In this document: positions 1,889-49,885 of the stretch, piece after piece | Layout: each line of letters starts with the position of its first letter | How positions within the stretch are numbered: position 1 is the stretch's first letter | Origin: Escherichia coli | Lineage (GTDB): Bacteria > Pseudomonadota > Gammaproteobacteria > Enterobacterales > Enterobacteriaceae | DNA length: 64,000 nt | Strand: one strand, 5' to 3' | Assembly (NCBI RefSeq): GCF_041248615.1 | Contig: NZ_CP158426.1 | Translations under genes and position numbers: made by a program | Notes under the pieces: model-generated | The model's database searches: none | The model's input: the letters and a program-made list of their open reading frames with translations, nothing else | Told to the model about the DNA's origin: nothing

Positions 1889-2653
1889 ATGAATAACTCC
1901 CCCCGCTACCCGCAGCGCGTTCGCAATGATCTGCGCTTCCGTGAACTGACTGTGCTACGCGTTGAGCGTATTAGCGCCGGTTTTCAGCGCATTGTCCTTG
2001 GCGGCGAGGCGCTGGACGGTTTTACATCGCGCGGCTTTGACGATCACAGCAAACTCTTCTTTCCTCAATCTGATGCTCACTTTGTGCCGCCAACGGTAAC
2101 GGAAGAGGGTATCGTCTGGCCGGAAGGACCACGCCCACCGTCGCGTGACTATACGCCGCTGTATGACGAACTACGCCATGAACTGGCGATTGATTTCTTT
2201 ATTCACGAAGGTGGCGTCGCCAGCAGCTGGGCAATGCAGGCGCAACCGGGCGATAAACTTACGGTGGCAGGTCCGCGCGGTTCGCTGGTGGTGCCAGAGG
2301 ATTACGCGTATCAGCTGTATGTCTGCGATGAATCCGGAATGCCCGCACTGCGCCGCCGCCTGGAAACGTTGAGCAAACTTGCCGTTAAACCGCAAGTTAG
2401 CGCACTGGTTAGCGTGCGGGATCACGCCTGCCAGGATTATCTCGCGCACCTTGATGGTTTTAATATCGAATGGCTGGCGCATGATGAGCAGGCGGTAGAT
2501 GCGCGTCTGGCGCAGATGCAAATCCCTGCCGATGATTACTTCATCTGGATAACCGGCGAAGGCAAAGTCGTTAAGAATTTAAGCCGCCGCTTTGAAGCGG
2601 AACAGTATGATCCACAGCGGGTACGTGCAGCGGCTTACTGGCACGCAAAGTAA
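1889..2653 (+). CDS. yqjH: Siderophore-interacting ferric reductase YqjH (NfeF)
   Basis: 254-aa ORF; FAD-binding siderophore-interacting protein family; K-12 synteny. Confidence 0.9.
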   Translation: MNNSPRYPQRVRNDLRFRELTVLRVERISAGFQRIVLGGEALDGFTSRGFDDHSKLFFPQSDAHFVPPTVTEEGIVWPEGPRPPSRDYTPLYDELRHELAIDFFIHEGGVASSWAMQAQPGDKLTVAGPRGSLVVPEDYAYQLYVCDESGMPALRRRLETLSKLAVKPQVSALVSVRDHACQDYLAHLDGFNIEWLAHDEQAVDARLAQMQIPADDYFIWITGEGKVVKNLSRRFEAEQYDPQRVRAAAYWHAK

Positions 2654-2660
2654 CTGATAT

Positions 2661-2700
2661 ATAAAAAGAAAAAGGCTGATGATTTCTCGTCAGCCTTTGC
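2661..2700 (-). terminator. Hairpin plus T-run (minus strand) immediately 3' of the tRNA fragment; likely the original ileX terminator, also closing yqjH
   Basis: aaaggctgatga / tcgtcagccttt stem with T-run on the minus strand (A-run 2661..2670 on plus). Confidence 0.5.
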
Positions 2701-2706
2701 TATATC

Positions 2707-2753
2707 TGGTGGCCCCTGCTGGACTTGAACCAGCGACCAAGCGATTATGAGTC
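2707..2753 (-). repeat. attR: displaced 47-nt 3' fragment of tRNA-Ile2 (acceptor/T-arm/anticodon-stem 3' side)
   Basis: Matches 43/47 nt of the intact tRNA at 51123..51169; homology stops abruptly at 2753. Confidence 0.85.
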
Positions 2754-2879
2754 ATGAGGCAAGTTCGTTCTATATTGTTTTTGTTTGTTCGTGATTGCTT
2801 TATTAGTTGTTTGTAATCAATAAATTATGTGATTTTCCCTGTCTCCGCTTGGTTCCGTTTTTTCTTCATTGTACGATCG

Positions 2880-2903
2880 TTACCTGACCCATTACCTGAC
2901 CCA
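2880..2903. repeat. 24-bp direct repeat TTACCTGACCCATTACCTGACCCA (left copy), 47 bp upstream of int
   Basis: Identical 24-mer at 51043..51066; contains an internal tandem of ACCTGACCCA. Confidence 0.8.
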
Positions 2904-2949
2904 AAATCACGAGTTATTCTGATTGTTACTGGTTTAGAAAAGAGGTTCT

Positions 2950-4266
2950 ATGGCCGTCAATCTTACTGAAACAGCCATCCGAGCATTGAAAGCAAAAAAG
3001 ACATCGTTCTATGTCTGGAGCAACAGCTCTCAACGTGGCACTGGACGACTTGGTGTCAAAGTTCAGCCTTCTGGCAGCAAGATTTTCTATTTCCGCTATT
3101 ACGTGGAAAAAGGGAAAAAAGAAAGATTCATTCAATTGGGTATATGGCCTGAGATGAAACTGGCCACAGCGAATGAACTGGCAAAAAAGTATGGTGCCTG
3201 GCTCATTGAAGGAAAGGCTCCCCAGGCAGAACTGGAACGACAACAGTTTGCAGAACAGCAGCGGATACAACTCCATCAATCACAGGGCTCATTTGAAGCA
3301 TTGATTCATGGTTATGTTAACAAAATGAAAATTGATAATAAGAGGACATGGCAGGATGTTCTGAAACGCCTTGAAAATGAATGCTATACAGTGATCCCCC
3401 GTGAAACTAAAGCTAAAGATGTGACTTCCGGACAGATTAAACATATCCTGGCCGGGATCATTCAGCGCGGTGCTGTGGTTCACTCTAACCGGATCCGTTC
3501 TTACCTGATGGCTGCATTTAACTATGGACTGAAAGCAGATAACGATCCGATGAACACAAGTGTAGGGATTACTTTTGGGCTGGAGGCAAATCCGGTGTCA
3601 GTGATACCGAAACAGTCATCTGCTGAAAAAGTCGGTGATACCTGGCTGACACTTGAAGAGTTGCGTTTTCTAATGGAACATTTTGCTGAAGCAACCAACG
3701 TTGGATTATTGATGCAACATTTGATCCGATTCTGTATCTATACCGGAGGGCAACGTCCTTTCGAAATGATCGCCAGTCAGTGGTGTGATGTTGATTTTCA
3801 ACAAAAAACGCTGCTGGTGACTGCTGATGTCTCTAAAAATAAACGAGAGCATTTGATACCGTTGACTGAATCAGCATTACAGGAATTATCCTGTGTGCAG
3901 GAGTTAACAAAAGAAAAATCCAGCCCTTACATTTTTCCACTTTCGACTAATGGTAAGCGTCCGGTTCGTACGGACAGTCTGGCTCGCGCTATCATGTATT
4001 TCCGGGCTTTTAATCCTGACTTTAAAATTTTTACAGCACGTGACTTACGTCGGACCTGTAAAACGTTAATGGGAGAAGCTGGGATCAGTAAGGAAATCCG
4101 CGATCGTATTCAAAATCATGCGTTGAACGATGTCAGTTCAAAACATTATGATCGATACGATTATTTGCCAGAAAAACGCAGAGCACTTGAGATCTGGGAG
4201 GACCGGGTTAATAACTATCAACAGCAAACAGGCAATAATGTTGTCAATCTGTTTGGCAGAAGGTGA
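2950..4266 (+). CDS. P4-like tyrosine integrase (N-terminal arm-binding domain plus C-terminal catalytic domain)
   Basis: 438-aa ORF; N-terminus MAVNLTETAIRALKAKK...; C-terminal R...HxxR...Y catalytic residues (DLRRT, NHAL, SKHYDRYDY). Confidence 0.9.
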   Translation: MAVNLTETAIRALKAKKTSFYVWSNSSQRGTGRLGVKVQPSGSKIFYFRYYVEKGKKERFIQLGIWPEMKLATANELAKKYGAWLIEGKAPQAELERQQFAEQQRIQLHQSQGSFEALIHGYVNKMKIDNKRTWQDVLKRLENECYTVIPRETKAKDVTSGQIKHILAGIIQRGAVVHSNRIRSYLMAAFNYGLKADNDPMNTSVGITFGLEANPVSVIPKQSSAEKVGDTWLTLEELRFLMEHFAEATNVGLLMQHLIRFCIYTGGQRPFEMIASQWCDVDFQQKTLLVTADVSKNKREHLIPLTESALQELSCVQELTKEKSSPYIFPLSTNGKRPVRTDSLARAIMYFRAFNPDFKIFTARDLRRTCKTLMGEAGISKEIRDRIQNHALNDVSSKHYDRYDYLPEKRRALEIWEDRVNNYQQQTGNNVVNLFGRR

Positions 4267-4395
4267 GGGAGTTCCTGGTTGCTGTACGAATTGTGTACAA
4301 TTGATGGGTATTGTTGATGCACTTGGTTCTTGTATTGTTTACTATAATTATTGAGGTAAATTTTCGTGCCGGTATTACTCAGAGGGGATTCAAAA

Positions 4396-4992
4396 ATGGC
4401 TGTAATTCCAATGTCTTACTCCCCTGCTACTGTAGCTCGTCGTTTTTCGATACTGGATGGAGTAACTATTCAGGGCGTGCTTTACCAGATCATCTGGGAT
4501 CCAAAGACTCCGTTTGCTGCGGTAATCGAAGCTGCACCTTCTGTTATTGATGGTGATGTTCGCCATAAGGTTGTTGCCACTCTGGAGCTTCAGCGTCGTC
4601 CCCGGCTTGAAGGCGTGTTTGTCCAGAAATTCTGGGAAGAACAGGATGTTGCTCAGATTGAAGGGATTGTTGTCGATGGCGCTGTACGTGATGTTGGTCT
4701 TGCAACGTTTGTTTATGAAACGATAGTCACAAAAGCGGGCGTTGTACTATTAAGTGATAACGAGCAATATGAAGGAGGTAAAGCTCTCTGGCAGCATATT
4801 GCGCGTCGTTCAACGAATCTGAAGGTGTTTATTTTAGATACTGATTCCGCACGGTATTACCCGTTTGATGGCGAACGGATCAGTTATGACGGGAAAAGCA
4901 TCCCGGAATCAGAAATCTGGAGTGAACATCCTGAGCGAAACAGACACGCTGTCGTTCTTGTGGCTGAATCTGTTAATGGTAAAGCCGCATAA
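4396..4992 (+). CDS. Hypothetical protein (198 aa from ATG 4396; ORF open from 4366)
   Basis: Long ORF with plausible RBS (gagggg) upstream of ATG 4396; no recognisable motif. Confidence 0.45.
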   Translation: MAVIPMSYSPATVARRFSILDGVTIQGVLYQIIWDPKTPFAAVIEAAPSVIDGDVRHKVVATLELQRRPRLEGVFVQKFWEEQDVAQIEGIVVDGAVRDVGLATFVYETIVTKAGVVLLSDNEQYEGGKALWQHIARRSTNLKVFILDTDSARYYPFDGERISYDGKSIPESEIWSEHPERNRHAVVLVAESVNGKAA

Positions 4993-5074
4993 TTTGCTGA
5001 GTGTCTCATTTTTTGAGATCTTGCTGGAAAGTCTCCTTTGGGGATAGCGAACTGCTATCCCCTTTCTCAGTGAG

Positions 5075-6679
5075 TTACTGTTCGACCAGACATTTTCCCC
5101 ATAAAGGTCGTATCGAGTATCTATCTTCGCTATATGGATTTATTTTATTTTTTTCCCTCTGTGCTATCAGCAACGTGTCGATCTCATCCTTAATAATGTG
5201 TTGAACTGCTTGACGGTAACGGTTAAGCGAAGTGTCACTGATATCTTGTGGAAGTTGTAGACTGCCATCTGCCTTGACAAGTTCATTCACACCATCTTTA
5301 ATTCTGCGTCCCTGACCATCAGGTATACCTTCATTCAGATCATAGCCTTTTAGTCCTGCAAGACGAATATTCACGTCAATCTTTTCTGTACGTATCTTTT
5401 TGTTACTTACCAACAGAATTTTATTGGCGTTATACCATTTTTCAAATATTTCCAGTTGTTTCATGATGTTTGTGAAGTTATTCAGTTCGCTCCTGAATTC
5501 AATAGATTTTCTAATTTTACGCTCTTTTGCATCAATGTTTATTCCTGGATAATTTATTTCCATTTTTAACGGTTCTGTGTATGCCTGTTGCAGGCAATCA
5601 GCAAGATTCATTGCTGCATCCTGCAGGGTATTGGTATAAATCAGTTTCAGAAGTTCATCACGCTGTATAGTGATTTGACAATAGTCTTTTTCCCATGCGG
5701 TGGTGTTTTCAATCGTGTCACTTTCATCGGAAATAATTGTTGTGAACTTCCAGGTGTAACGAATAAAATCATTTCCTTTAAAATATTGCACTAATTTATT
5801 TAACCATTCATATATTTCCAGAGCATAAAGTTTAACGTATCCATCATATATTATCTTTGTTGCATTTTTGTTGGCTAGCGAAAACATTTTGTCCACGAAT
5901 TCTGTACGCCCGATTGTTAGCAATTGTTTTCTAAGTTTACTCACATCGTTAGTATCTGGTTTCTCACAATTCCAGGGACTTTTGTATTCATTTTCAAAAG
6001 GAGAAAGCCATTCAGGAATCTCTGTTTCTGAGTGATAGCAGTTGTTAATAGCCAAACCAAGGGTTCTGGCAAGTATCGCTGATTCATCAATTTGATGGTA
6101 TCGGTTCAGTTGTTCCAGTAATTCTTTAGTACATGAGTGCGCAACAGAAAGATCCTGATGGCAATATCCTTGTCGAACCAGAGCGGGAAGTGGTGAGCAA
6201 TGAGCTTTACAATCTGTCAGAATATTGAACAAATCGTTTCTGACGAATTCTTCCATCTCAGGTGTTTTCCAGCCACCACTATTTTGGCCGACAAATTTTG
6301 CTGTTGGTTCCCTGTTCATATCTCCCCAGGTTTTCAGGCTGACGAGTCTGTTATCAAAACCATTGTATAAATGGCACATAACCTGAAAAGCAGCATACAG
6401 ATCTTTAGATAGTGGATTATCGGTCTCACTTATGGAGTAGTTCTCTCTGTTTTTCTCTAAAATACTTTGGAGTTTTGTGTTAGCGCGTAATGCCGAGAGA
6501 ATCCGATGTTGTTCATCAAACCAAGGACGATATTCTGGATCCAGATACAATCTGCGTGCTTTGAAAATGAGTAGAAGCAACTGTTCGGAAACAGCTTCAT
6601 GTATGTGGGGAAACGGCATGGAGGTGCCGGATAAAACACGATAGTACGGGTGGTTTGTTTTTACCTTTTTAGTTACCAT
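5075..6679 (-). CDS. Hypothetical 534-aa protein, AT-rich orphan; candidate accessory or defence gene
   Basis: 1.6-kb uninterrupted ORF in strongly AT-rich DNA, where chance ORFs this long are improbable; no Walker A, HTH or nuclease motif identified by eye. Confidence 0.55.
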   Translation of the reverse strand: MVTKKVKTNHPYYRVLSGTSMPFPHIHEAVSEQLLLLIFKARRLYLDPEYRPWFDEQHRILSALRANTKLQSILEKNRENYSISETDNPLSKDLYAAFQVMCHLYNGFDNRLVSLKTWGDMNREPTAKFVGQNSGGWKTPEMEEFVRNDLFNILTDCKAHCSPLPALVRQGYCHQDLSVAHSCTKELLEQLNRYHQIDESAILARTLGLAINNCYHSETEIPEWLSPFENEYKSPWNCEKPDTNDVSKLRKQLLTIGRTEFVDKMFSLANKNATKIIYDGYVKLYALEIYEWLNKLVQYFKGNDFIRYTWKFTTIISDESDTIENTTAWEKDYCQITIQRDELLKLIYTNTLQDAAMNLADCLQQAYTEPLKMEINYPGINIDAKERKIRKSIEFRSELNNFTNIMKQLEIFEKWYNANKILLVSNKKIRTEKIDVNIRLAGLKGYDLNEGIPDGQGRRIKDGVNELVKADGSLQLPQDISDTSLNRYRQAVQHIIKDEIDTLLIAQREKNKINPYSEDRYSIRPLWGKCLVEQ

Positions 6680-7458
6680 AATGTTAAATTCTTCCGTCTA
6701 TTGCATAGCTGTTTCCAGTAGAGAAACTTGATACAGTCCTTTGTCAGGACATTGATACAGAGTTAACAGCCTCTACGAAATGGGAATCAGTTATGCAGTG
6801 GCATTATACGATGCTGAATCTAATACGATATCCTTAGCGTTTATTCCTGATTTTTTTACGAGCATTCCCTTTTGTTGCATATTGCTCAGGACGCAAATGA
6901 TTTTACGGTTATAGCCCTCTACAGTCACGTCACTTTCATCTGAAAATATGTATCGTTTTCATTCAATTATTATCTTTTGTCTGCACTTTAGCTTTAGAAA
7001 GTTGGCAAAAATCAACTCCCTCTTACAAGTTCTATTATCGCCAGAAGATAATTTTGTGAACTTCGTCACGTTTTCAAACTAATGTTGTGGGGGCTTTTCT
7101 GGGGAGAATTTTTGGTCACTACCCCTCCTCTTGATATCATAGATTATAACAAGATTTTTTTTGTTTTTGTCTGCATAAAATAACCTACGAATATTGTGAT
7201 TTTGATTTTTATTTTGTATACCAAAAAGCATTGTTTAAGTTATTTTTATATTGTGACTTTCTTTGTTGTTATTGTGTTATTAGAAGTCAGTTAATTAAAT
7301 CATTTCTCGCAATTTGATTTCTTGGTTGTGCAAATGTATTGTTTTGCTCGTGAGTTGCTGGTGCTGTTCAACAGCATACCACTACAGATAGATGTAGTGA
7401 TTTGAGCAGCTCACATGCATATACAATCTGAAAATCATGAATATATAAGGAGAGCAAT

Positions 7459-7686
7459 ATGTGGAAGCCGTTAAGAGATGAGAACCGTTTATCAATTTTG
7501 AAGATCTATGGATACACCTGTGACAGACTGGTACGAGAAAAGGAACGCCAGAAAATTACGTCTATTTCTCGTTCACAAGCCTGGAAACTGGAACGTGAAG
7601 GAAAATTCCCGCCACGTAAAACTATTGGAAAGAAATCCTGTGGGTGGTTATTAAGTGATCTATTGTGGTGGATTAGTCAGTATTAA
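7459..7686 (+). CDS. AlpA-family phage regulatory/excisionase-like DNA-binding protein
   Basis: 75 aa; AGGAG RBS; HTH plus EREGKFPPRK..G.....W...L..W motif typical of AlpA/Phage_AlpA. Confidence 0.7.
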   Translation: MWKPLRDENRLSILKIYGYTCDRLVREKERQKITSISRSQAWKLEREGKFPPRKTIGKKSCGWLLSDLLWWISQY

Positions 7687-7748
7687 CCTTATAGTATCAG
7701 AATAATATATATTTCTATATTTTAATTTTATAATTAAAAAGGAGTTTC

Positions 7749-8495
7749 ATGATGAAACGTGTCTCTTTCTCTCTTGCAGAAACATATGAAGCTGATGTAA
7801 TTAAAAAGTATCAGCATTTAAAAAAATGCTCATTTTCAGCAGCGATTAAAGAGTGTTTAAAGCTAGGGGCTCCTGTTTTAAACAGGATAAATGAAAATAT
7901 TGCTGCTATAACTGATATAGAGGATAAGCTACGTCAGTTTTTTAATGAGGAACCATTTGTGCAACGGACAAAGCCTGAAATAACAAAAGGAGAGTTTTTT
8001 CATAGCATTTATAAATCGCATATCAAATATGAATATGATGTTCTCGATAGAAAGATATTTCCTCATGAAAGCACCAGAAATGCTATGGGAGTTGCAGAGA
8101 AAAAGGGAATTAAAGAGAATGCGACCTTAATGCTGGAATATTATAAAGTTGAGAAGGCAATTTGTATTTACACGAACAGAAAAGTTTCCCATACCCTGAA
8201 TCGTGCAGGAGGGTTTTATAAAACCATTCTGATTAAAACCAGTGTTTTTGGGGATTATTTTTTTGACTTTTGCAATTCAGTTTGCCTGCCGATAGATGAG
8301 TTGATTGAGTATGGTACGAAAGAAACAGTGAGGCGACATCAGATTCGTAGTACAGGATTTTGTACTTTTCATATTCCGATTTTTTATATCAATAATAAGG
8401 CTGTAATAGTGCCTGTTCTGAGAACAGAGGAAGTTTCACAAAGTTCCAGAACAGGTGGAGATGTTATTATTATTAACCCATTTGAAGATGAATGA
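7749..8495 (+). CDS. Hypothetical 248-aa protein (possible N-terminal ribbon-helix-helix-like segment)
   Basis: ORF with AAGGAG RBS in AT-rich DNA; N-terminus KRVSFSLAETYEADVIKKY resembles RHH regulators; remainder unassigned. Confidence 0.5.
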   Translation: MMKRVSFSLAETYEADVIKKYQHLKKCSFSAAIKECLKLGAPVLNRINENIAAITDIEDKLRQFFNEEPFVQRTKPEITKGEFFHSIYKSHIKYEYDVLDRKIFPHESTRNAMGVAEKKGIKENATLMLEYYKVEKAICIYTNRKVSHTLNRAGGFYKTILIKTSVFGDYFFDFCNSVCLPIDELIEYGTKETVRRHQIRSTGFCTFHIPIFYINNKAVIVPVLRTEEVSQSSRTGGDVIIINPFEDE

Positions 8496-8716
8496 TTATG
8501 GCCCGCGTAGATTTATTCATAACCCAGAAATCGTGGTGTAAATGATGAACAGAAACCGCTTTCTGAGGTTAAAGAGAGCAATCATTACCCGGGAGTGGCC
8601 AACTCTTTTATCGAGTACTTTTCCGATGTATCTGGAGAGCCTCCCTTAGAAAAGAGTAATGCGACTCAGGAAAAAACAGGTTCAATAATTAATTCATGAC
8701 ACCAGTTTGAGGCATT

Positions 8717-9277
8717 ATGGCGAGTTTTGCATACATAGACTCTGAAAAATGGTCAAAACTTAATCGCTTAAAATCCATGATTCAGAGATATTTTAAAGAA
8801 CCACTATTGCAGTTAACAGGCGAATTGGGTCGCCCGGATTATACTCTGGCAGACAGAAAACGGTTAGTTCGACTCCTGACGCAGGATATGCAAAGGGGTG
8901 ATATTCTGATTACTAAATCGTTAACTTGTTTTGGTAATACGCCGGAAAAAATACAGGAGGTTTTATCTTTAAGTATCAGACAAGGTATTAATATTTGCTT
9001 TTTTACGTCATCAGAGTTGCCGGATGGTGATGATATTCCTGTGGTACTCACCGGGATGATTTTACCTACAGATATTAGAGGAAAAATTCCCGACATCAGT
9101 ATCCGGAAAATTAAAAGAAAACCAGGAAGGAAAGAAGGGAGTATTCATAGTAAAAATATCAGACAGTTGAAATTGCAGGGGTTCAGTCAGTCACAAACAG
9201 CCAGAAAATTAAGCATCAGTTTATCCACTGTAAAAAGACACTGGGATAAAGGTATTGTTGATCTAACTGCAGAGTAA
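8717..9277 (+). CDS. Small serine-recombinase-like protein (resolvase/invertase size and layout, divergent)
   Basis: 186 aa; N-terminal YIDSE segment, central GDILITKSLTCFGNTPEKIQEVLSLSIRQGINICF resembling resolvase core, C-terminal HTH (SQSQTARKLSISLSTVKRHW). Confidence 0.4.
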   Translation: MASFAYIDSEKWSKLNRLKSMIQRYFKEPLLQLTGELGRPDYTLADRKRLVRLLTQDMQRGDILITKSLTCFGNTPEKIQEVLSLSIRQGINICFFTSSELPDGDDIPVVLTGMILPTDIRGKIPDISIRKIKRKPGRKEGSIHSKNIRQLKLQGFSQSQTARKLSISLSTVKRHWDKGIVDLTAE

Positions 9278-9658
9278 CATTTTATAGTCCTTGTAGCTAT
9301 TGGCAATGGAGTTATAAATACATGTGCGTTGGATAGGTAATATATATTATATCTGTGATGTATAGTATATGTGTAATGATGGATATGATGTACTAATAGA
9401 GCTAATGGTATTCTGATACCAAATAATTAGTTGTGTGTAGATCATAACTCTGTTTAATGTTTTAGAACGTTCTAATGTAACTGTGTAACATCATCCTGTT
9501 CTCTAATGTAACAATAGGCAGTAGCGTTTTTCTTAATTGACGCCCAGAGGGTTATATATCCCTCTGGGAACTACTGATACGAATATTAATATCTGCTTCT
9601 GTTGTGTATTGGGTAGGTTAACTATTAGCTTATCTCTGAAAGCAAAAGGAATATTAAC

Positions 9659-10273
9659 ATGATTACGATTGAAACTCTTTACGGTGAATGTCATGAGGCT
9701 CACGGGTTAAAAATAAGAAACCAGGTGAATAACCTCTTCCAGAAACATCCCAGAATAACGGCAATACGGGTGGATCTCCATTATCCTCCCGTGATTGACA
9801 ACGGGGATACCATTACCTGTTTTCCTAACCTGAGTCCCGGAGAGATATCTCGTTTCCGTAACTCGCTGAATGCGAAAATTAATGCAGATCAACACCGTAA
9901 AAAACAACAAGGCAAACGCACCTACGCAACGTCGGTTTGTATTATCTGGGCGAAAGAATATACGCAGTCCTTTAAATGTCATTATCACGTCTGCCTTTTT
10001 TTTAACAAAGACGCCTATTACCACCTGGGAGACTATGAGCGCTCTGACACCCTGAGAGGGTTAATTACCGGAGCCTGGTACAGTGCCTTAGGGTTAGAAC
10101 TGGAAGATCACCAGGGACTAGTTCATTTCCCTGCTAATGGACGTTACATCCTGGATATTAACGATCCTGATTTCCCTGAGCAATATCAGCGCTTATTGGC
10201 ACGTCTGGATTATCTGACGAAGCTCGACACTAAAGCATCAGGCCAGCGTAACTTTGGCTACAGCGGTTTTTGA
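9659..10273 (+). CDS. HUH-motif protein (rolling-circle Rep-like / YagK-YfjJ inovirus-Gp2-like family)
   Basis: 204 aa; HUH-type motif CHYHVCLFF and downstream Y-x-x-K (DYLTK); family assignment from memory only. Confidence 0.45.
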   Translation: MITIETLYGECHEAHGLKIRNQVNNLFQKHPRITAIRVDLHYPPVIDNGDTITCFPNLSPGEISRFRNSLNAKINADQHRKKQQGKRTYATSVCIIWAKEYTQSFKCHYHVCLFFNKDAYYHLGDYERSDTLRGLITGAWYSALGLELEDHQGLVHFPANGRYILDINDPDFPEQYQRLLARLDYLTKLDTKASGQRNFGYSGF

Positions 10274-10300
10274 CCTATTGTAACTGTAAGGTGATTTATT

Positions 10301-10867
10301 ATGTATACAGAATCAAACGTTAAGCTTTCCTGTAACGCCCTCTGGCAAAAGTATGTCCTTGCAACTCTGTATCGGGCTGCAGCTACACATCCTAAAATTA
10401 AATTATTACAATTTAAATTAATACCTTGCCCAGGTATGAACAAGGCAATTCCCTCTCTGATGGCTGATTTTACTGGTGAACTGCATAGACTAATTTCTGA
10501 ATATTTGCAGTGCAAGCGACGTAAAGATAAATCTGTTGAGCCCGCCCCTTTATATTATCTCTGGAGTAGGGAAGCTGTGGCTAACGATACCACTCCTTAT
10601 CTTATGGTACTGCTACTTAATAACGATGTCTGGTGTAAGAGTCGTGAGGTGGTGGCTCTCAGAAATCTGATTGAGCAGGCGTGGGGAAAAGTATTGGGTG
10701 AAGATAACTCCATTACACATCTGGTTGTGTATCCTGAAGTGCTGTCGTTGGTATTTGATGCAGCTAACACATACAACGCTGAGCCTGGTGTACTGGAACA
10801 GACGGCCCAGGCTTACATTGAATCGCATGGTGCCATTGAACGTCATCTTGGGTGTAGTGACTTTTAA
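10301..10867 (+). CDS. Hypothetical 188-aa protein, probably co-transcribed with the HUH gene
   Basis: ORF 27 bp downstream of the previous gene with RBS taaggtga. Confidence 0.45.
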   Translation: MYTESNVKLSCNALWQKYVLATLYRAAATHPKIKLLQFKLIPCPGMNKAIPSLMADFTGELHRLISEYLQCKRRKDKSVEPAPLYYLWSREAVANDTTPYLMVLLLNNDVWCKSREVVALRNLIEQAWGKVLGEDNSITHLVVYPEVLSLVFDAANTYNAEPGVLEQTAQAYIESHGAIERHLGCSDF

Positions 10868-10977
10868 CGACGTCAGGTGATGCATAAGGGCCTTTCGCTG
10901 AGAGGCCCTGTTTACACAATTAAATAAGTCGAGCCCGACCAGCAATTTTGACGTTGACGGCAGGATTATTGAGGGGC

Positions 10978-11062
10978 AATCAATGTGTTCTTCGGCAGCG
11001 ATTACGGTAGTGAACGGACCTGCTGTCTGAATGGTATCGATCCGCAAGCGTATCTGCGCCAT
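10978..11062 (+). mobile_element. IS66-family transposase (TnpC) 3' remnant, truncated by IS2
   Basis: In-frame translation FFGSDYGSERTCCLNGIDPQAYLRH resembles the conserved IS66 TnpC C-terminal region; ends at the IS2 boundary. Confidence 0.35.
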
Positions 11063-12151
11063 TGGATTTGCCCCTATATTTCCAGACACCTGTTATCACT
11101 TAACCCATTACTGGCCCGCTGCCGTAGATATTCCCGTGGCGAGCGATAACCCAGTGCACTATGCGGATGCCATTCGTTATAATGCTCGAACGCCTCTGCA
11201 AGGTTCTTTGCTGCCGTTAACCCGTCTGGTTTGGGCATGATACTGATGTAATCACGCTTTATCGTTTTCACGAAGCTCTCTGCTATGCCGTTACTCTCCG
11301 GACTCCGCACCGCCGTGTTCTTCGGTTCAAGTCCCAGCATCCGGGCGAACTGGCGTGTTTCATTAGCCCGGTAGCATGAACCATTATCCGTCAGCCACTC
11401 CACTGGAGATGTCGGAAGCTCGCTGCCGAAGCGGCGTTCCACCGCTCCCAGCATGACGTCCTGTACTGTTTCACTGTCGAAGCCGCCCGTAGTGACCGCC
11501 CAGTGCAGTGCCTCACGGTCACAGCAGTCCAGCGCGAACGTGACCCCCAGTTTTTCTCCGTTATCACAGCGGAACTCGAACCCGTCAGAGCACCATCGTT
11601 GATTGCTTTCTTTCACGGCCACTTTGCCAGTATGTGCCCGTTTCGATGGCGGTACAGCGGTTTTTCGCTCAAGCAACAGCGCATTCTGGCGCATGATCCG
11701 GTAAACACGTTTGGCATTGATAGCAGGCATACCATCAAGTTCGGCCTGTCTGCGAAGCAGCGCCCATACCCGACGATAACCATACGTGGGCAGCTCTCCG
11801 ATAACATGGTGTATACGGAGAAGCACATCCGTATCATCTGAGTGACGGCTGCGGCGACCATCTTTCCAGTCATCGGTTCGTCTGAGAATGACGTGCAACT
11901 GCGCACGCGACACCCGGAGACAACGGCTGACTAAGCTTACTCCCCATCCCCGGGCAACAAGGGAGACCGTCATTCCCGGTTCAAAGCTCTGCTGAACAAT
12001 AGCGATCTTTTCCTGTGTAGTACGCCGTCTGCGTTTCTCCGGCCCTAAGACATCAATCATCTGTTCTCCAATGACTAGTCTAGAAACTAGTATTAAGACT
12101 ATCACTTATTTAAGTGATATTGATTGTCTGGAGATTCAGGGGGCCAGTCTA
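11063..12151 (-). mobile_element. IS2 deletion derivative (about 1.09 kb instead of 1.33 kb)
   Basis: IS2 terminal sequences at both ends (revcomp TAGACTGGCCCCCTGAATCTCCAGACA at 12122..12151; TGGATTTGCCCCTATATTTCCAGACA at 11063); internal deletion of about 240 bp. Confidence 0.85.
11074..12105 (-). CDS. IS2 transposase, in-frame InsC(N-terminal 36 aa)-InsD fusion created by the internal deletion
   Basis: 343-aa ORF: [36 protein letters not shown] joined directly to [18 protein letters not shown]... (InsD). Confidence 0.7.
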
Positions 12152-22424: not shown

Positions 22425-23204
22425 TCAGAAGTGACCGTCCAGGCGGTCACCGAACTCGATAATAAAGCGGCTCATTGCCATTCGCCAGTCCTTCAACGGC
22501 ATCGTCCATTTCTGGGACGCAGACTGGATTGCCAGCCACACCACTTTTTTCACCGAGTCGTCTGTCGGGAACACTTTACGCTTTTTGATCGCATGGCGGA
22601 TCACGCTGTTTAGCGACTCGATGGCATTCGTCGTATAGATCACTTTGCGGATGTCCGTTGGATAAGCGAAGAACGTGGCAAGATTCGGCCAGTTAGCCTG
22701 CCAGCTTCGGCTTATCTGAGGATAGCGACTGTCCCAGGCCGCAGCGAACGCTTCCAGTGCCTGCTGACCTGCCTCTTCCGTGGGAGCTTGATAAATCGCT
22801 TTCAGGTCGCGAGTGACGGCCTTGTAGTCCTTCCATGACACGAAGCGCAGGCTGTTGCGCACCATATGCACGATGCATAACTGGATGCGGGCCTTCGGAT
22901 ATACTGTGTTGATGGCATCCGGGAAGCCTTTCAGGCCATCCACACAGGCGATGAGGATATCGTTCAGACCGCGGTTTTTCAGTTCAGTCAGCACATTGAG
23001 CCAGAACTTCGCCCCTTCATTTTCGGCCAGCCACATACCCAGCAGTTCCTTCTGACCTTCGATATTGATGCCCAGTGCCAGGAACACCGATTTGTTGATG
23101 ACGCGACTGTCCTGCCGAACTTTCAGGACGATACAGTCAAGATAAACAATGGGGTAAACAGCATCCAGTGGTCTGTTTTGCCATTCTACAACCTGCTCCA
23201 TCAC
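22425..23204 (-). pseudogene. IS256-family transposase, N-terminally truncated (about 140 aa missing) by insertion of the IS629-like element
   Basis: 259-aa ORF matching the C-terminal two thirds of IS256-family transposases; upstream end abuts the IS629-like inverted repeat at about 23218. Confidence 0.7.
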
Positions 23205-23271
23205 GGCATCGGTGACCTGAGCCGCCCCGGGAATCCTGGAGACTAAACTCCCTGAGAAAGAGGTAAACAGA

Positions 23272-23598
23272 ATGACTAAAAATACTCGTTTTTCCCCCGA
23301 AGTCCGTCAGAGGGCGATTCGTATGGTTCTGGAAAGTCAGGGCGAATATGACTCACAGTGGGCGGCAATTTGTTCCATTGCCCCAAAGATTGGCTGTACA
23401 CCGGAGACTCTGCGTGTCTGGGTGCGCCAGCATGAGCGGGATACCGGAGGCGGTGATGGCGGGCTCACCACCGCTGAACGTCAGCGTCTGAAAGAGCTGG
23501 AACGTGAAAATCGTGAACTGCGCCGCAGTAACGATATCCTTCGCCAGGCTTCCGCTTATTTTGCGAAGGTGGAGTTCGACCGCCTCTGGAAAAAGTGA
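23272..23598 (+). CDS. IS629-like OrfA (HTH transposase subunit)
   Basis: 108 aa [21 protein letters not shown]...; leucine-zipper region; overlaps orfB in the -1 frame. Confidence 0.8.
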
Positions 23599-24012
23599 TG
23601 CCACTGCTGGATAAGCTGCGTAAGCTGTACGGGGTCGGACCGGTATGCAGTGAACTACATATTGCCCCGTCAACGTATTACCACTGTCAGCAACAGCGAC
23701 ATCATCCTGATAAACGCAGTGCCCGTGCGCAGCGCGATGACTGGCTGAAGAAAGAGATACTGCGCGTATACGATGGGAATCATCAGGTATACGGTGTGCG
23801 TAAAGTCTGGCGTCAGTTGTTACGGGAAGGAATCAGGGTAGCCAGATGTACAGTGGCGCGCCTCATGGCGGTTATGGGACTTGCCGGTGTTCTCCGGGGT
23901 AAAAAGGTCCGCACTACCGTCAGCCGGAAAGCCGTTGCCGCAGGCGACCGCGTAAACCGTCAGTTTGTGGCAGAACGTCCTGACCAGTTGTGGGTGGCTG
24001 ATTTTACTTACG
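23595..24012 (+). pseudogene. IS629-like OrfB, interrupted after ...QLWVADFTY by a group II intron
   Basis: Transposase homology ends at 24012; intron consensus GTGTG follows at 24013. Confidence 0.7.
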
Positions 24013-26769
<2,757 letters not shown>

Positions 26770-35632: not shown

Positions 35633-38600
35633 CTAAATCTTTCCACCCACCCCCTTAAATTTTTCAATAAATGCGCTAATTTTTTGAAAAACAGTCTGTT
35701 TTTTCGTTTTATATTGCGGATTTAAAGGACTGAGTCTGGGCAGTGTCTCGTTTAATTCCGTGCCATTTTCGGTGGCGTATTCGCGTTTTAAAGATGTGCG
35801 AATATAGCGTTTCGCCGCCTCTTCATTGAGATTTTCTTCTTTGATCAAGGCTTCTGCTTCACGTTGCTGTTCGCGTTGAGCAAACGTAAAGAATGCGTCA
35901 ATGATGCTGGCTTTGTCCGGTAAATCATCCAGGTTCGTTTGCTGAATAAAATCGACCACCAGGCCCTCTTTAGCACGGTTCCCCAGGCTTGAACGAATTA
36001 AGCGTTTGACCTCTTCGATCATTTCGCTCTTACCTTTGTTTTGTCTGTTGTGCTCGAAAATCAGACCAAGGATATAATCCAGGTTTATTTCCTGAGATTT
36101 CAGCAAATCGACCTCAAAAACTACGTCATCCCAGTCAGTGGTTGATTTCTCTTTTTTCTCAGCTTCTTTCTCACGGCGCTGCCAGTCGCGAATATCGTTA
36201 TAGGCAGAACGATAATCCTGAATCTTGCGATCAGCAGGGAGACGAATTGTTTGCAATTCAGCGAGCTTTTCATCATCCACATAATGTTCTGCTTTGAATT
36301 TTTCTACTGCAACAGGATCGCTAAGATCGATTTGTTGCAGGGCTTTCAGCGTGGCAAATTCATCATAGTTTTGCAGGATGTTCTCGGCACGCAGGTATTC
36401 ACCAAACAGTTTAACGAAGTCTTTCTTCTCTTTTTCACTTTCAATACTGGCAGGGTCAGGGAACCGTTGTTCCAGTTCTGCAACTACTGCCATAAAGCCG
36501 CGCTTAGCTTCACCAGTAGCAGCATCAGTAAAGCCTTCCATATACTCTGCATAACTCTTTTCTAACACTACATTTTTGGTGTTTTTGTCACCAAACAGCG
36601 TTATGGCATCGATGGTTGAGCGTTCCAGATCGCGGAAAGTGACGATATTACCGAAGGTTTTAGTTGCATCATAAATACGGTTGGTGCGGGAAAATGCCTG
36701 CATCAGGCCGTGAAAACGCAAGTTTTTATCGACGAATAGCGTGTTCAATGTTGGAGCATCGAAACCGGTTAAAAACATCCCCACGACAATTAACAGATCG
36801 ATATCCTGATTTTTAACCCGTTGGGCTAAATCACGATAGTAGTTCTGAAAACCCTTACTGTCGGTGCTGAAGTTAGTTTTAAAATAGCTGTTATACTCAC
36901 GAATTGCAGCGTCAAGAAACTCTTTAGCACTGCTGTCCATTGCGCTGGTATCAAAAGTTTCATCGGATATTTCACCAATCGCATTTTGTTCTTCATTAGC
37001 GGCAAAGGAGAAGATTGTCGCAACACGCAGTGGTTTACAGGTAGTAGATTTATTAGCGGCTTCCTCTTGTAACCGTTTAAACGTCGCGTAATAGGCTTTC
37101 GCGGCATCCACGCTGCTTACTGCCAGCATGGCATTAAAACCTTTGGAGCCAGGGAAAGTACGGTGGGTTTTCTGGCGGAAATTATTCAGAATATATTGCG
37201 TGATTTCCTGAATACGCATGGGATGAAGAAACGCCTGCTGATTTTCAGCCGCACTTAGTTTTTTCTCGTCAGTTTCTGTCTCTAAAGACTTAAACTGTGG
37301 TCGCACATCGTTGTAGTCCACCTTGAATTTGAGCACTTTTTCGTCACGAATCGCATCGGTAATTACATACGAATGCAATTCACGACCAAATACGCTGGCG
37401 GTTGTTTCTGAGCCTAAGGCGTTTTCCGGGAAAATAGGGGTGCCGGTAAAACCAAACTGATAATAGCGTTTGAATTTCTTCTTCAGGTTTTTCTGCGCTT
37501 CTCCAAACTGGCTGCGGTGGCATTCATCAAATATAAACACCACTTGCTGATTATATACAGGCAGGTCGCTTTCTGCTTTCATCAGGTTATTGAGTTTCTG
37601 AATAGTAGTGACGATAATTTTGTTATCGTCCTTATCCAGATTTCGTTTAAGGCCTGCGGTATTTTCCGAGCCGTTGACGCTGTCTGGCGAAAAACGCTGA
37701 TATTCCTTCATGGTCTGGTAATCGAGGTCTTTCCTGTCGACCACAAAGAAGACTTTATCAATAAAGTCCAGCTCTGTTGCCAGACGCGCGGCTTTAAAGC
37801 TGGTGAGGGTTTTACCAGAACCGGTAGTGTGCCAGATATACCCACCGCTTTCCGGTTTTGACCAGTTCTTCGCTGTAAAGGAACTCTTAATTTTCCACAG
37901 AATGCGCTCGGTGGCGGCAATCTGGTACGGTCGCATCACCAGTAGCGTCTGACTACTGTCAAAAACGCTGTAGTTCACCAGAACATTCAGCAGAGTATGT
38001 TTCTGGAAAAAGGTAGCGGTAAAGTCTTTGAGGTCTTTAATCAGCGTGTTGTCTGATTTCGCCCAGTTCATGGTGAAGTCAAAACTGTTTTTATCGCGCT
38101 TTGTTGTGTTGGCAAAATAACGGGTATCGGTGCCGTTAGAAATGACAAACAGTTGCAGATACTTAAACAGAGAATTTTCGCTGTTAAAACTCTCTTTGCT
38201 GTAACGGTGTATCTGGTTGAACGCTTCACGAATCGCCACGCCGCGCTTTTTCAGTTCGATTTGCACCAGCGGCAAGCCATTAACCAGGATCGTGACGTCA
38301 TAACGGTTAGCGTGAGAGCCTGCCTGTTCAAACTGCTGGATAATCTGCACTTTATTGCGCATGAGATTCTTTTTATCTATCAAATAGATGTTCTCAAGAC
38401 GCCCGTCGTCAAAAATAAAGTCGCAGATGTAGTCGATATGAATTTTACGGGTTTTATCCAGGATGCCATCGCTCGGATTATCCAGAAACTGCTCCGTGAA
38501 ACGCCGCCACTCGCTGTCATTAAACACCACACCATTGAGGTTCTGAAGCTGTTCCCGAACGTTGGCCAGCATCGCTGACTGTGATTTTACGGGTATAAAT

Positions 38601-38749
38601 TCATAGCCCTGATTCCGCAGGTCCTGAATCAGTTCACGTTCCAGGTCCGATTCGCTCTGGTAGCTGTCGCCTGTTTGCTCAGCTTTGATGTACTTATCAA
38701 GAACGATAAAGTTATTGGATTCAGCAATGGTGTGTGTTTGATGAGTCAT
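35633..38749 (-). CDS. hsdR: Type I restriction enzyme R subunit (EcoR124-like, Type IC)
   Basis: 1038 aa; Walker A TTGSGKT, DECH box ([10 protein letters not shown]), helicase motifs; same length as EcoR124I HsdR (from memory). Confidence 0.9.
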
Positions 38750-38870
38750 AGCGCATCCTTTGTGCCGTCTGGCAAGGGTCGGAAGGGAGTTAATGGTGAC
38801 TTCCGGCGTGTAAAAAATAGTCTATATACAGACCGGATGTTAAGGTGATCCGGTCTGTAATAATGGTCAA

Positions 38871-40064
38871 TTAATTACTGACAGTTTCAGGTTTCGGGAA
38901 ACTGAACAGTAAATCACGGTAGTACTCGTATTGTTTCTGGCGTAACTCGATTTCACGCGGGAGACCTTCGGTGATGGAGTTGGTCAGGGTGTCGAATTTA
39001 TCGAGAATAGATACAATTCGTTTTTGTTCAGCTATGCATGGAATTGGGATTCGGAACTGTCTAAGATTTGTCAGATTGAGCATTCCATAGTTACGCATTT
39101 CAGATTTAAGTGTATTGTATAAATTTGTCAAGAAATAGAATATGAATTTATCAGTAATAATATTTTCTTTAGTGGACTTTATGCTGGCTATATTTTGATT
39201 GGTTGTTGCTTCAAACTCAAGAAATGCAGTTTTAAATATAGTTGCACCAACAAGTGCGATTAAAGTGGTATTCTTAGGAAGAAGTTTTGCAGTGGATTTT
39301 TTTAATCCTAGCTCGCTTATAAAATCTTTCGCAAAATAAACAGATTCATTATTACATGATTCCGATTTTAACCATGGAATTGACCCATTATCCCAGTATT
39401 CTGCTTTAGATTTTGAGGGGGTTCCTCCAGCGCAAATATGAAATAACTCTTCATTTCCCAAAGTTGTCCAATTAACCTCACCCTCTTTAAAACTCAACAA
39501 CTGGTCGCGATAGTAGTTGTACTGTTTTTTACGCATGTTAAGCTCAGCGGTAAGCTCAGCGGTAAGTGCAGTAAATTTATCCAGAATCCGAACGATTTCA
39601 GACTGGATGGCAAGGGACTTTTCCGGGTTGTCCGGACTAGGAATGGGAACTTTAAATCCTTCCAGCATGGGTTTTCTTATCGAAATGGCGGTAGCACCCA
39701 CACTTTTTGTCAAGATGTACTGCTTAAAGCTAGATGACATGAAGTAATACAAAAACTTCGTGTCTACGGCATTAGTTGTGATACGAATTCTATACGCCCT
39801 TTGATGTAGAGCATATTTCCCCTCAACATAGTGAAATATGTCGCCAATTCCACCTTCACCAGGAATGACTATTGCTACCTCATCAAATTCAAAGGTATCT
39901 GACTTCAAGATATTCTTTGAGCGAACATAGAATGGATAAATTCCATTTTCGCTTTCATCCTGACGATTTGAACTTCCAGTACCGATATCTGCCATAGAAC
40001 CCAATGTTACCCACTCAACCTCAACCCCATCCAACAGTTTTTCCAGATAGCTCAGCTCGCTCAT
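38871..40064 (-). CDS. hsdS: Type I restriction-modification specificity subunit (Type IC; two target-recognition domains with a TAEL-repeat central region)
   Basis: 397 aa; conserved N-terminus [18 protein letters not shown] and central ...[33 protein letters not shown]; second conserved repeat ...[16 protein letters not shown]... Confidence 0.85.
39541..39564. repeat. 12-bp tandem repeat x2 (agctcagcggta) inside hsdS, encoding TAEL-TAEL
   Basis: Two perfect adjacent 12-bp units followed by a diverged third unit (agtgcagtaaat). Confidence 0.85.
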
Positions 40065-41617
40065 TTCTGCACCTCGCAGCCTTCAATTTCAGCCACAATC
40101 GCATCAATATCTTTGCGCAACTGGTCGATTTTGCTGACCGTGGTTTTCAGTTCAGCATTCAGCTCATCGATATCGATAATTTCGCGGTTATCTTTCGCTT
40201 CCACATAGCTGCTCACCGACAGGTTATAGTCATTCGCGACAACGGCTTCGAACGCGACAGATTTTGCCAGATGAGCAACATCTTCCTTGCTGGCAAATAC
40301 CTGCATAATCTGTTCGATATGGGCATCGGTCAGGATATTGTTGTTAGTCTCTTTTTTGAACAGTTCGCTGGCGTCAATAAACTGAACTTTGGTATCCGTT
40401 TTATGTTTAGACAGCACCAGAATATTTACGGCAATGGTGGTGCCAAAGAACAGGTTCGGTGCGAGTGAAATCACGGTTTCGACATAGTTATTGTCGACCA
40501 GATACTGACGGATTTTCTGCTCTGCGCCGCCACGGTAAAAAATACCCGGGAAGCAGACAATCGCAGCACGACCTTTGGCCGAAAGATAGTTCAGCGCATG
40601 TAGTACAAACGCAAAGTCAGCTTTGGATTTGGGGGCCAGAACGCCAGCCGGGGCAAAACGTTCATCGTTAATCAGCGTCGGGTCATCGCTGCCAATCCAT
40701 TTCACCGAATACGGTGGGTTAGATACGATGGCGTCAAACGGTTTTTCATCTCTGAAGTGCGGCTCAGTCAGTGTATTACCCAGCTTGATATCAAACTTGT
40801 CGTAGTTGATATTGTGCAAAAACATGTTCATACGCGCCAGGTTATAGGTCGTATGGTTGATTTCCTGACCGAAAAAGCCTTCTTCGATGATATGGTTATC
40901 AAACTGTTTTTTCGCCTGCAACAACAGTGAGCCGGAACCCGCTGCCGGGTCGTAGATTTTGTTAACGCTGGTCTGCCCGTGCATAGCCAGTTGTGCAATC
41001 AGCCTGGAGACGTGCTGCGGTGTAAAGAACTCACCGCCTGACTTACCGGCATTTGCGGCATAGTTAGAAATCAGGAACTCATAGGCATCGCCGAACAGGT
41101 CAATCTGATGTTCGTTAAAGTCGCCAAGCTTTAACCCTTCAACCCCTTTCAGAACCGCAGCCAGGCGGGCATTTTTATCCTTAACGGTGTTACCCAGGCG
41201 GTTACTGGTGGTATCGAAATCAGCAAACAAACCTTTGATGTCTGCTTCTGAAGGGTAGCCGTAAGCAGAACTTTCGATAGCAACGAAGATGCTGTTTAAA
41301 TCTGCATTCAGTCTGTCATTGGTATTTGCTTTCGCAGCTACGTTGCAGAAAAGCTGACTGGGGTAGATGAAGTAGCCTTTGGTTCTGATGGCATCGTCTT
41401 TAATGTCATCAGTAATTACGCTGTCATCCAGTTTCGCATAACAGATACTGTCATCACCGGCTTCAATATAACTGGAAAAATTTTCGCTGATAAAACGGTA
41501 GAAAAGTGCGCCCAGAACGTATTGCTTAAAATCCCATCCGTCAACAGAACCTCTGACATCATTGGCAATTTGCCATATCTGGCGGTGCAGTTCTGCTCGT
41601 TGTTGAATACTTGTCAT
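40061..41617 (-). CDS. hsdM: Type I restriction-modification N6-adenine DNA methyltransferase subunit
   Basis: 518 aa; motif [11 protein letters not shown], motif IV NPPY (SNPPYSVKW); stop overlaps hsdS start. Confidence 0.9.
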
Positions 41618-41880: not shown

Positions 41881-42753
41881 ATGAATCCGTCTGATGCCAT
41901 TGAGGCAATTGAAAAACCACTTTCTTCCCTGCCTTACTCACTTTCCCGTCACATCCTGGAACATCTGCGCAAACTCACCAGCCACGAACCCGTGATTGGC
42001 ATTATGGGGAAAAGCGGGGCCGGTAAATCCTCACTCTGTAATGCACTGTTTCAGGGGGAGGTCACCCCGGTCAGTGATGTTCACGCCGGCACCCGGGAAG
42101 CGCAGCGCTTCCGTCTGAGTGGCCATGGTCACAGCATGGTTATCACTGACCTGCCCGGGGTGGGCGAGAGCCGGGACAGGGATGCAGAGTATGAAGCCCT
42201 GTACCGTGACATTCTGCCTGAACTTGACCTGGTACTGTGGCTGATTAAAGCCGATGACCGTGCCCTGTCTGTGGATGAGTATTTCTGGCGACACATCCTG
42301 CACCGGGGACATCAGCGGGTACTGTTTGTGGTGACGCAGGCCGATAAAACGGAGCCCTGCCATGAATGGGATATGGCCGGTATTCAGCCTTCTCCCGCAC
42401 AGGCACAGAACATTCGCGAAAAAACGGAGGCGGTATTCCGTCTGTTCCGGCCCGTACATCCGGTTGTGGCCGTATCGGCCCGCACCGGCTGGGAACTGGA
42501 TACGCTGGTCAGTGCGCTCATGACAGCACTTCCCGACCATGCCGCCAGTCCCCTGATGACCCGCCTGCAGGACGAGCTGTGCACGGAATCTGTCCGGGGG
42601 CAGGCCCGTGAACAGTTTACCGGTGCGGTGGACCGGATATTTGACACGGCGGAGAGCGTCTGTGTTGCCTCTGTGGCTCGTACGGTTCTGCGTGCCGTCC
42701 GTGACACGGTGGTCTCTGTTGCCCGCGCTGTATGGAACTGGATTTTCTTCTGA
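41881..42753 (+). CDS. YeeP/YkfA/YfjP-like GTPase (ORF open from 41842)
   Basis: G1 motif GIMGKSGAGKSS, G3 DLPG; conserved position immediately upstream of antigen 43 as in CP4-type prophages. Confidence 0.7.
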   Translation: MNPSDAIEAIEKPLSSLPYSLSRHILEHLRKLTSHEPVIGIMGKSGAGKSSLCNALFQGEVTPVSDVHAGTREAQRFRLSGHGHSMVITDLPGVGESRDRDAEYEALYRDILPELDLVLWLIKADDRALSVDEYFWRHILHRGHQRVLFVVTQADKTEPCHEWDMAGIQPSPAQAQNIREKTEAVFRLFRPVHPVVAVSARTGWELDTLVSALMTALPDHAASPLMTRLQDELCTESVRGQAREQFTGAVDRIFDTAESVCVASVARTVLRAVRDTVVSVARAVWNWIFF

Positions 42754-42871
42754 ACACTCTGCCAGGGGAAATGCCTGATTACATTGCGTTAACCAACTGA
42801 AAACATGACACAAACACCTCATACCCACCTCTTTCTCTTGCGTGACTGCCTTGCTGTTAATAGAATAAAAC

Positions 42872-42907
42872 GATCGATAAAACAGGTATCGATCGTTGTA
42901 ATCGATC
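42872..42907. promoter_or_regulatory. Three GATC sites in the agn43 regulatory region (Dam/OxyR phase-variation switch)
   Basis: GATC at 42872, 42891 and 42904 within aacGATCgataaaacaggtatcGATCgttgtaatcGATCgtt, about 220 bp upstream of the antigen 43 start. Confidence 0.6.
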
Positions 42908-49874: not shown

Positions 49875-49885
49875 CCAGAAACAAC

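Follow-up and report, generated by a model that had tools for sequence, protein, structure and literature searches.

The window analysed here is a stretch of 64,000 nucleotides (64 kb) of Escherichia coli DNA in which seven genes form an AT-rich block directly downstream of a tyrosine integrase gene (int). We consider it likely that this block is the integrase-side end of a CP4-type island inserted in the tRNA gene ileX, and that it consists of a conserved backbone and of two independent accessory genes, here called A and B, which sit in the slot between int and alpA. The original prediction, made from the sequence of the window, had taken the seven genes for a single undescribed system; the block is instead a known kind of thing, a CP4-type backbone that is also present in K-12, joined by two unrelated accessory genes. 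What could still prove new is restricted to the int-alpA slot, where B is the one real candidate.

Five of the seven genes belong to the CP4-type backbone (Table 1): alpA, one YagM-family and one YagL-like gene, an HUH gene of YagK type, and a degenerate paralogue of YagK/YfjJ. Their order and orientation are the same as in the K-12 cryptic prophage CP4-6 (intF-yagN-ykgV-yagM-yagL-yagK there vs. int/slot/alpA-like/yagM/yagL/yagK here), which is likewise integrated in a tRNA gene and carries a small AlpA-like gene at the same place; the alpA-like gene of the window occupies the position of ykgV and of alpA in K-12. Further CP4-type features are the succession of an AlpA-family gene and a YagK/YfjJ (PF11726) gene, the duplicated tRNA 3' segment that adjoins the tyrosine integrase, and a standard CP4 distal module at 41881-50000 (GTPase, Ag43, DUF932, antirestriction, RadC-like, and CbeA/CbtA). 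The RefSeq annotation used was that of NZ_LT599825.1 (E. coli NRZ14408, 768001-832000), which is identical to the window and contains the same seven open reading frames (ORFs) that had been read from the DNA, with A and B convergent. The claim that these ORFs are not due to chance is borne out by homologues found elsewhere for every one of them, and the genes are, as had been proposed, non-core and mostly without an assigned function.

Table 1. Genes, spacers and insertion-site features of the island end, in window coordinates
Feature	Position	Strand	Basis or remark
Displaced native 3' half of tRNA-Ile ileX	2708..2756	-	left attachment (att) junction beside int
Tandem 12-mer TTACCTGACCCA x2	2880..2903	+	identical pair at 51043-51066, inside both island ends
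P4-type tyrosine integrase (int), 438 aa	2950..4266	+	phrog_1 E 3e-46
Gene A, predicted GNAT-fold acyltransferase, 198 aa, WP_000268404	4396..4992	+	fold prediction
Gene B, orphan, predicted all-alpha, 534 aa, WP_000256688	5075..6679	-	AlphaFold model
Divergent B/alpA spacer	6680..7458	.	34.0% GC; conserved TGTGA-N6-TCAC site at 7055-7069
AlpA-family excision/activator protein, 75 aa	7459..7686	+	phrog_2790 E 3e-22
YagM-family protein, 248 aa	7749..8495	+	31% identical to K-12 YagM, E 2.5e-31
YagL-like protein with putative C-terminal helix-turn-helix (HTH) region, 186 aa	8717..9277	+	36% identical to YagL, E 2e-24
AT-rich spacer	9278..9658	.	32.5% GC; GC-rich palindrome at 9543-9568
YagK-type HUH-Y protein, 'inovirus Gp2 family', 204 aa	9659..10273	+	PF11726 E 4.6e-55
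Degenerate YagK/YfjJ paralogue, 188 aa	10301..10867	+	PF11726 E 7.7e-10
IS3-family transposase	11074..12105	-	terminates backbone; metabolic cargo beyond
Intact ileX tRNA, CAU anticodon	51124..51199	-	right att junction

The island spans approximately positions 2757-51123 (48.4 kb) and interrupts ileX in the part that runs from the anticodon loop to the 3' end. The empty site in K-12 reads mug-ileX-nfeF with nothing in between, and its alignment spans both junctions of the window: on the left, the native 3' half of ileX comes after nfeF with its terminator, and the match to the K-12 nfeF-ileX junction extends up to GATTATGAGTC, beyond which the sequences diverge; on the right, the tRNA gene has a native 5' half and an island-derived 3' half/T-arm. 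The crossover lies within a 19-nt stretch (GACCAAGCGATTATGAGTC). With the integrase gene and these two tRNA halves in place, the earlier reading of a P4-type integrase in an ileX island was correct. The two tandem pairs of TTACCTGACCCA are candidate arm-type integrase sites, placed as such sites would be expected to be if they flank the core in the circular form. The integrase adjoins the displaced native half of ileX and not the intact tRNA, a polarity opposite to that of CP4-57 (ssrA-intA). Named 'integrase arm-type DNA-binding domain-containing protein' by the annotation pipeline PGAP, it matches NF007246 at E 2.9e-20, which is under the curated cut-off, is 23% identical to IntA (E 7e-22) and, locally, 25% identical to IntF, and was found in 438 of 5426 complete E. 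coli genomes.

The backbone proteins could be assigned one by one. PGAP labels the 75-aa protein as AlpA family or as an HTH regulator, in line with the AlpA-like regulator noticed before. The 248-aa and 188-aa proteins had been listed as orphans and turned out to be YagM-family and YagK/YfjJ-family proteins, respectively; the first is called 'YagM family protein' by PGAP, and its N-terminus is suspected to be ribbon-helix-helix-like (residues 13-37, weak DUF6290 match, E 0.39); PADLOC, NCBIfam, PHROG and Pfam gave nothing informative for it. For the 186-aa protein, the description as serine-recombinase-like holds as far as descent is concerned, since it is resolvase-derived, but the catalytic residues are gone: an end-to-end MAFFT alignment with YagL and gamma-delta resolvase places S10 in a gap, R8 is lost, and R68 is replaced by C and R71 by N. 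The gamma-delta resolvase sequence in this alignment is presumably correct and is consistent with matches to 1GDT and 5CY1. The protein also matches the phrog_125 DNA invertase (E 1.4e-6), Tn3 resolvase (residues 46-174, E 0.04), Pfam Resolvase (E 0.094) and, weakly, HTH_7 (E 0.0042) and HTH_23 (E 0.0041) over residues 146-180, and is probably a catalytically dead resolvase derivative. The name 'type I phosphoribosyltransferase', given to it in some PGAP annotations, was rejected: the match to the HPRT phosphoribosyl pyrophosphate (PRPP) loop is local (E 2.6e-4), with VEDIIDSGNT corresponding to ITKSLTCFGNT, and the acidic pair is gone.

The 204-aa protein, in which PF11726 corresponds to YagK_YfjJ_C, is 59% identical to YagK (E 2e-88) and 39% identical to YfjJ (E 3e-48). 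The HUH motif ascribed to it was confirmed, with H-Y-H-V-C-L and a downstream Y-L-T-K (YxxK) kept in the six family members of its alignment and a weak match to PF23343 (REP_ORF2-G2P) over H-Y-H. Its tandem neighbour of 188 aa is 28% identical to YagK (E 2e-9) and is regarded as a degenerate copy because P-Y-L stands at the HUH position and Q..Q at the YxxK position; it is predicted to be inactive.

Taken together, the backbone (alpA to the degenerate YagK gene) most likely serves the life cycle of the island itself. AlpA, together with Int, switches on excision and induction in CP4-57 and in the phage-inducible chromosomal islands (PICIs) of E. coli, and by analogy the homologues would do so here. 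The YagK-type HUH-Y protein is probably a nuclease that would nick the excised circle or start its replication or processing, and the YagL-like protein would only bind DNA. In the literature, AlpA has been shown to activate the cycle of E. coli PICIs (PMC6092414), and int, alpA, an inovirus-Gp2-like gene, RadC and an HTH gene have been proposed as core functions of phage-transduced islands (PMC12595487). Several points weigh against the reading of the block as a life-cycle module with two independent passengers. The module is deduced from conservation and domain content, experimental roles being limited to homologues of AlpA and Int, and the 204-aa protein is assigned to the HUH group by its motifs together with a Pfam match that is weak (E 5.8e-4). 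A recognisable primase or helicase is missing from the island (YfjI/DUF3987 is absent), and therefore replication of the island may not occur. Finally, A and B co-occur almost always in E. coli chromosomes (693 vs. 695 of the 5426 genomes), which leaves room for a functional link between them.

The independence of the two accessory genes is seen when related islands are compared. The complete block is present at approximately 100% identity in 255 of the 5426 genomes, all of one island lineage, so the expectation that it would be conserved as a unit across ileX islands holds within this lineage and fails beyond it, where inheritance as one unit breaks down: the ileX and thrW sister islands retain A, B and alpA (int at ileX only), and YfjI takes the place of YagM and YagL. 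The DNA identity to these sister islands changes along the region, from 97% for int and 91-99% for A to 69-71% for B, ~55% for the B/alpA spacer and 75-77% for alpA, with a sharp break at ~4990-5050, exactly between A and B; in one of the islands (L006) the A gene is 99% identical to that of the window and the B gene 58%. A and B are probably not a pair, because they recombine independently, are convergent separate units, and are each found alone outside these islands. Comparisons by hhalign of B with YfjH and of A with YagN found no relationship, so that the genes filling this slot in different island families are unrelated. In the related islands, defence-type cargo (abpAB in K-12, elsewhere a TOTE primase and a reverse-transcriptase gene with a frameshift) follows the YagK/YfjJ gene, which is not where the original prediction had placed its variable defence hotspot, beside the integrase.

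Gene B encodes an almost entirely helical protein according to its AlphaFold model (mean predicted local distance difference test score, pLDDT, 78.9; predicted template modelling score, pTM, 0.80). No family match was found for it in Pfam, PADLOC, NCBIfam or PHROG, no structure match, solved or predicted, beyond its own family, nothing in the PDB when searched with the B profile, and no match in 50,697 sequenced phage records (tblastn); distant B homologues gave no match to PADLOC models either. The family is small, with only 20 clusters in a set of 5.8 billion proteins and 42 representatives in one of 1.84 billion, and all relatives are apparently from Gammaproteobacteria. B is intact in ~13% of complete E. 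coli genomes, with at least four alleles at 57-78% identity. Diversifying selection on B was considered and dropped, as its divergence equals that of the adjacent segment of alpA and spacer. At 19% identity, the family keeps 24 invariant columns, R169, Y172 and H174 among them, and R169-x-G-Y-x-H174 fits the HEPN pattern R-x4-6-H, but there is no HEPN fold or profile similarity. A comparison by hhalign with a neighbouring HEPN_LA2681 protein shows no relationship either, and the motif was kept only as a lead.

The gene is confined to accessory slots of mobile elements. In E. coli and in locus L014 its position is between int and alpA; elsewhere it is divergent from alpA-DUF3987-YagK in L023 and L024, occupies the S/V junction of P2-like prophages in Klebsiella together with a gene for an acidic 145-aa protein (a pair that also occurs at a prophage end, beside tail-fibre and umuDC genes), and is found beside pPIWI_RE and HEPN_LA2681 genes and near mnmE. 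The acidic protein (L008 7225-7662; L032-L034) has a DE-rich C-terminus, is encoded divergently from B, and belongs to the Klebsiella clade, in two prophage contexts. Outside E. coli, a Gly/Ala-rich protein of ~100 aa is encoded beside B homologues (L011 2274-2588, L012 7344-7667, L014 4891-5217, L021 1261-1560); it is 76-83% identical across the four loci, matches PDC-M09A weakly (E 0.006) and no other family, and may be a membrane-active partner of B. Small HTH proteins accompany B in some other non-E. coli loci. In E. coli, neither a Gly/Ala-rich nor a small HTH partner was found when the spacer between B and alpA was searched with tblastn.

Our best guess for the role of B is conflict with phages or other mobile elements, or sensing. 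It is possible, and we hold this only tentatively, that B is a new moron protein of prophages and islands directed against phages or other elements, working by itself or with small partners specific to each element, and maybe an RNase acting through R-x4-H. This would fit its accessory slots (int-alpA, the P2-like S/V junction, the prophage end, the neighbourhood of pPIWI_RE and HEPN_LA2681), its diverged E. coli alleles and varying partners, and the invariance of R169, Y172 and H174, but no PADLOC, HEPN or other nuclease profile or fold matches B, its divergence is comparable to that of alpA and the spacer beside it and gives no sign of B-specific acceleration, and the phage records searched do not contain it. 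A broader formulation, to which we give slightly less credit, is that B founds a new, very small family for mobile-element conflict or sensing, with a fold unseen in the PDB and the AlphaFold database (AFDB) and with varying partners, and that it acts either as a stand-alone anti-phage or anti-element effector via R-x-G-Y-x-H or by regulating the alpA switch in response to phage.

That B is a sensor-regulator of the island, an analogue of Stl from Staphylococcus aureus pathogenicity islands (SaPIs) that controls the divergent alpA operon through the long spacer, appears unlikely. B is indeed divergent from alpA over a spacer of conserved length (~690-900 bp) in three E. coli island lineages as well as in L023 and L024, is situated between int and alpA in L014 too, and diverges together with alpA and not with int and A; in addition, its modelled C-terminal helices, with invariant S481 and R487 in 'S-x-S-L-x-R-Y', resemble, in our reading, an HTH recognition helix. 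Gram-negative PICIs, however, are reported to run on the AlpA activator, with no known repressor (PMC6092414).

For gene A, the fold prediction indicates a GNAT core, and the acetyl-CoA pyrophosphate-binding motif Q/R-x-x-G-x-G/A is present as R97-D-V-G-L-A102 (K-L-S-G-L-G in a Ralstonia phage homologue). In this predicted fold and its P-loop-like R/K-x-x-G-x-A/G motif, A resembles GNAT acyl-CoA N-acyltransferases; unlike typical members, it has an extra N-terminal beta region that is common to PmgF of phage P1, and unlike toxins of the AtaT/TacT type its gene has no adjacent antitoxin. None of the profile searches gave a significant GNAT match for protein A (PF00583 E 0.16; no match in NCBIfam or PADLOC), a PDB sequence search gave nothing, its match in PHROG is phrog_7522 (PHROG 7522), whose function is unassigned in that library, and the literature searched under the WP accessions and pmgF yielded no relevant paper. 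A full-length homologue with 87% identity is located at the pmgF locus of the P1-like phage-plasmids SJ46 (L007 4965-5597) and RCS47, and P1 PmgF itself (98 aa, L017 3995-4291, 'putative morphogenetic function') is a truncated remnant of protein A. Another homologue (73% identical, L040 7001-7606) is encoded on an F-like conjugative plasmid, in its leading region, with an antirestriction gene (PF03230), an SLT gene and traM as neighbours; the leading region of F-like plasmids is known for anti-defence genes. A further, distant homologue occurs in a chromosomal locus of exporter, bacteriocin type. No B-like gene was found near the distant A homologues on the F-like plasmid or in the chromosomal locus. 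A is probably an enzyme of element establishment or modification.

A two-gene system in which A would be a GNAT effector and B its partner is still less probable than a regulatory role of B. The two genes are adjacent, convergent and 82 bp apart, and their near-complete co-occurrence extends over two tRNA sites; against this stand the recombination break exactly between them, the contrast between their identities in L006, their separate transcription units, and the presence of A without B in P1-like phages, the F-like plasmid and the chromosomal locus and of B without A in several genera. To the idea that all seven genes make up one undescribed defence system we give hardly any credence, for all that the block is AT-rich, integrase-proximal and conserved as a unit: the 255 genomes are a single lineage, the parts separate and YagM/YagL are replaced in diverged islands, five genes are backbone shared with CP4-6 of K-12, and none of the seven proteins has a PADLOC match (PADLOC-DB v2.0.0, E<=0.01). 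This last scan agrees with the original prediction insofar as no known defence family was matched, and it assigns no family to any of the proteins. Of the profile and structure checks that had been suggested, those on B left it without a match, and those on the backbone genes and on A (predicted GNAT fold) led to assignments.

Returning to the reading of the block as a CP4-type island end, its composition is as had been described, with 38.8% GC at 4300-10900 and 36.5% at 5000-9700, against 53.2% and 52.7% in the chromosomal flanks and 50.5% in the whole island. The AT-richness is only moderate in parts, gene A having 46.6% GC and the two YagK-type genes 43-45%. Strong AGGAG-type ribosome binding sites were found for alpA (AAGGAGA) and the 248-aa gene (AAGGAG); those of the other genes are partial, and that of B is weak. 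Both long spacers are real and carry no conserved ORFs, and the one between B and alpA is considered non-coding because its alignment carries non-triplet indels. The suggestion that they hold promoters was not supported, as promoter and terminator scans were at chance level (18 promoter-like sites seen vs. 19.8 expected); an Rfam search of 2600-11200 gave nothing above noise.

The B/alpA spacer, 779 bp long here and 692-730 bp in three sister islands, contains the site TGTGAACTTCGTCAC, which matches the consensus half-sites of CRP and has no counterpart elsewhere in the window. It is unchanged in four islands, although the rest of their B/alpA spacers is only ~55% identical; a conserved CRP-like site in the control region of alpA is predicted on these grounds. 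Within the second spacer, 91 nt upstream of the YagK-type HUH gene, a GC-rich palindrome (CCCAGAGGG-TTATATAT-CCCTCTGGG) is a candidate operator or nick site for the HUH protein encoded downstream. Unrelated hairpins of 8-10 bp are present 40-160 nt upstream of K-12 yagK and of the Gp2 genes of L005 and L006.

Beyond the backbone, the IS3 insertion has probably truncated its original continuation, and a 78-bp pseudogene fragment in the RefSeq annotation (10985-11062) lies between the last backbone gene and IS3. The remaining island carries, according to the same annotation, sugar and lactate genes, a type I restriction-modification system and the distal module. The restriction-modification system (hsdR, hsdS, hsdM) is complete, is located far from the integrase (35633-41617), and is the sole recognisable defence system of the island. 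An ltrA gene (group II intron reverse transcriptase/maturase, 24684-26192) interrupts a broken IS3 element beside an IS1414 fragment, within 22425-26761.

These results guard against reading an ordinary island backbone as a defence system and place the variable defence cargo of this island family after the YagK/YfjJ gene, not beside the integrase. They narrow the search to B, a gene with diverged alleles, prophage moron loci and defence-gene neighbours, and with no detectable relative of known function or fold. They also yield three predictions for the backbone, namely a YagK-type HUH-Y nuclease with an inactive paralogue, a dead resolvase of YagL type and the CRP-like site in front of alpA; to our knowledge, the y-genes of K-12 concerned have stayed uncharacterised for decades.

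Among known systems, CP4-6 differs from the window island in that its int-alpA slot holds yagN, without detectable homology to A or B, and its integrase IntF is of a different type; of the two, only the window island has a second, degenerate YagK copy, and its YagL-like protein has degenerated further. CP4-57 (intA-yfjH-alpA-yfjI-yfjJ-abpBA) shares the layout of int, an opposite-strand slot gene, alpA and YagK/YfjJ, and the sister islands at ileX and thrW have A and B genes like those of the window, with the same int at ileX. Both CP4-57 and the sister islands carry YfjI (DUF3987) where YagM and YagL are found here, and after yfjJ they carry defence cargo (AbpAB, TOTE primase, the frameshifted reverse-transcriptase gene), where the window has IS3 and sugar-utilisation genes. 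Gram-negative PICIs and P4-like satellites resemble the island in carrying, near the left end, an integrase of the P4 family and a regulator of AlpA type (PMC6092414). No primase-helicase (alpha, pri-rep), capsid-redirection or packaging gene and no cos site is present in the annotation of the 48.4-kb island, and the PHROG and NCBIfam scans of the block likewise gave no satellite primase-helicase or packaging genes; the island, far above the ~10-15 kb of these elements and devoid of their primase and hijack genes, is a member of neither class. The tmRNA islands I23, I44 and I55 of Pseudomonas (PMC12595487) belong to another genus and have another att site and gene order, with alpA at the far end; by gene content they can be likened to the island described here, as both combine a tyrosine integrase, alpA, an inovirus-Gp2-like gene, RadC and an HTH protein, the set proposed as core functions of islands without transfer machinery of their own (PMC12595487).

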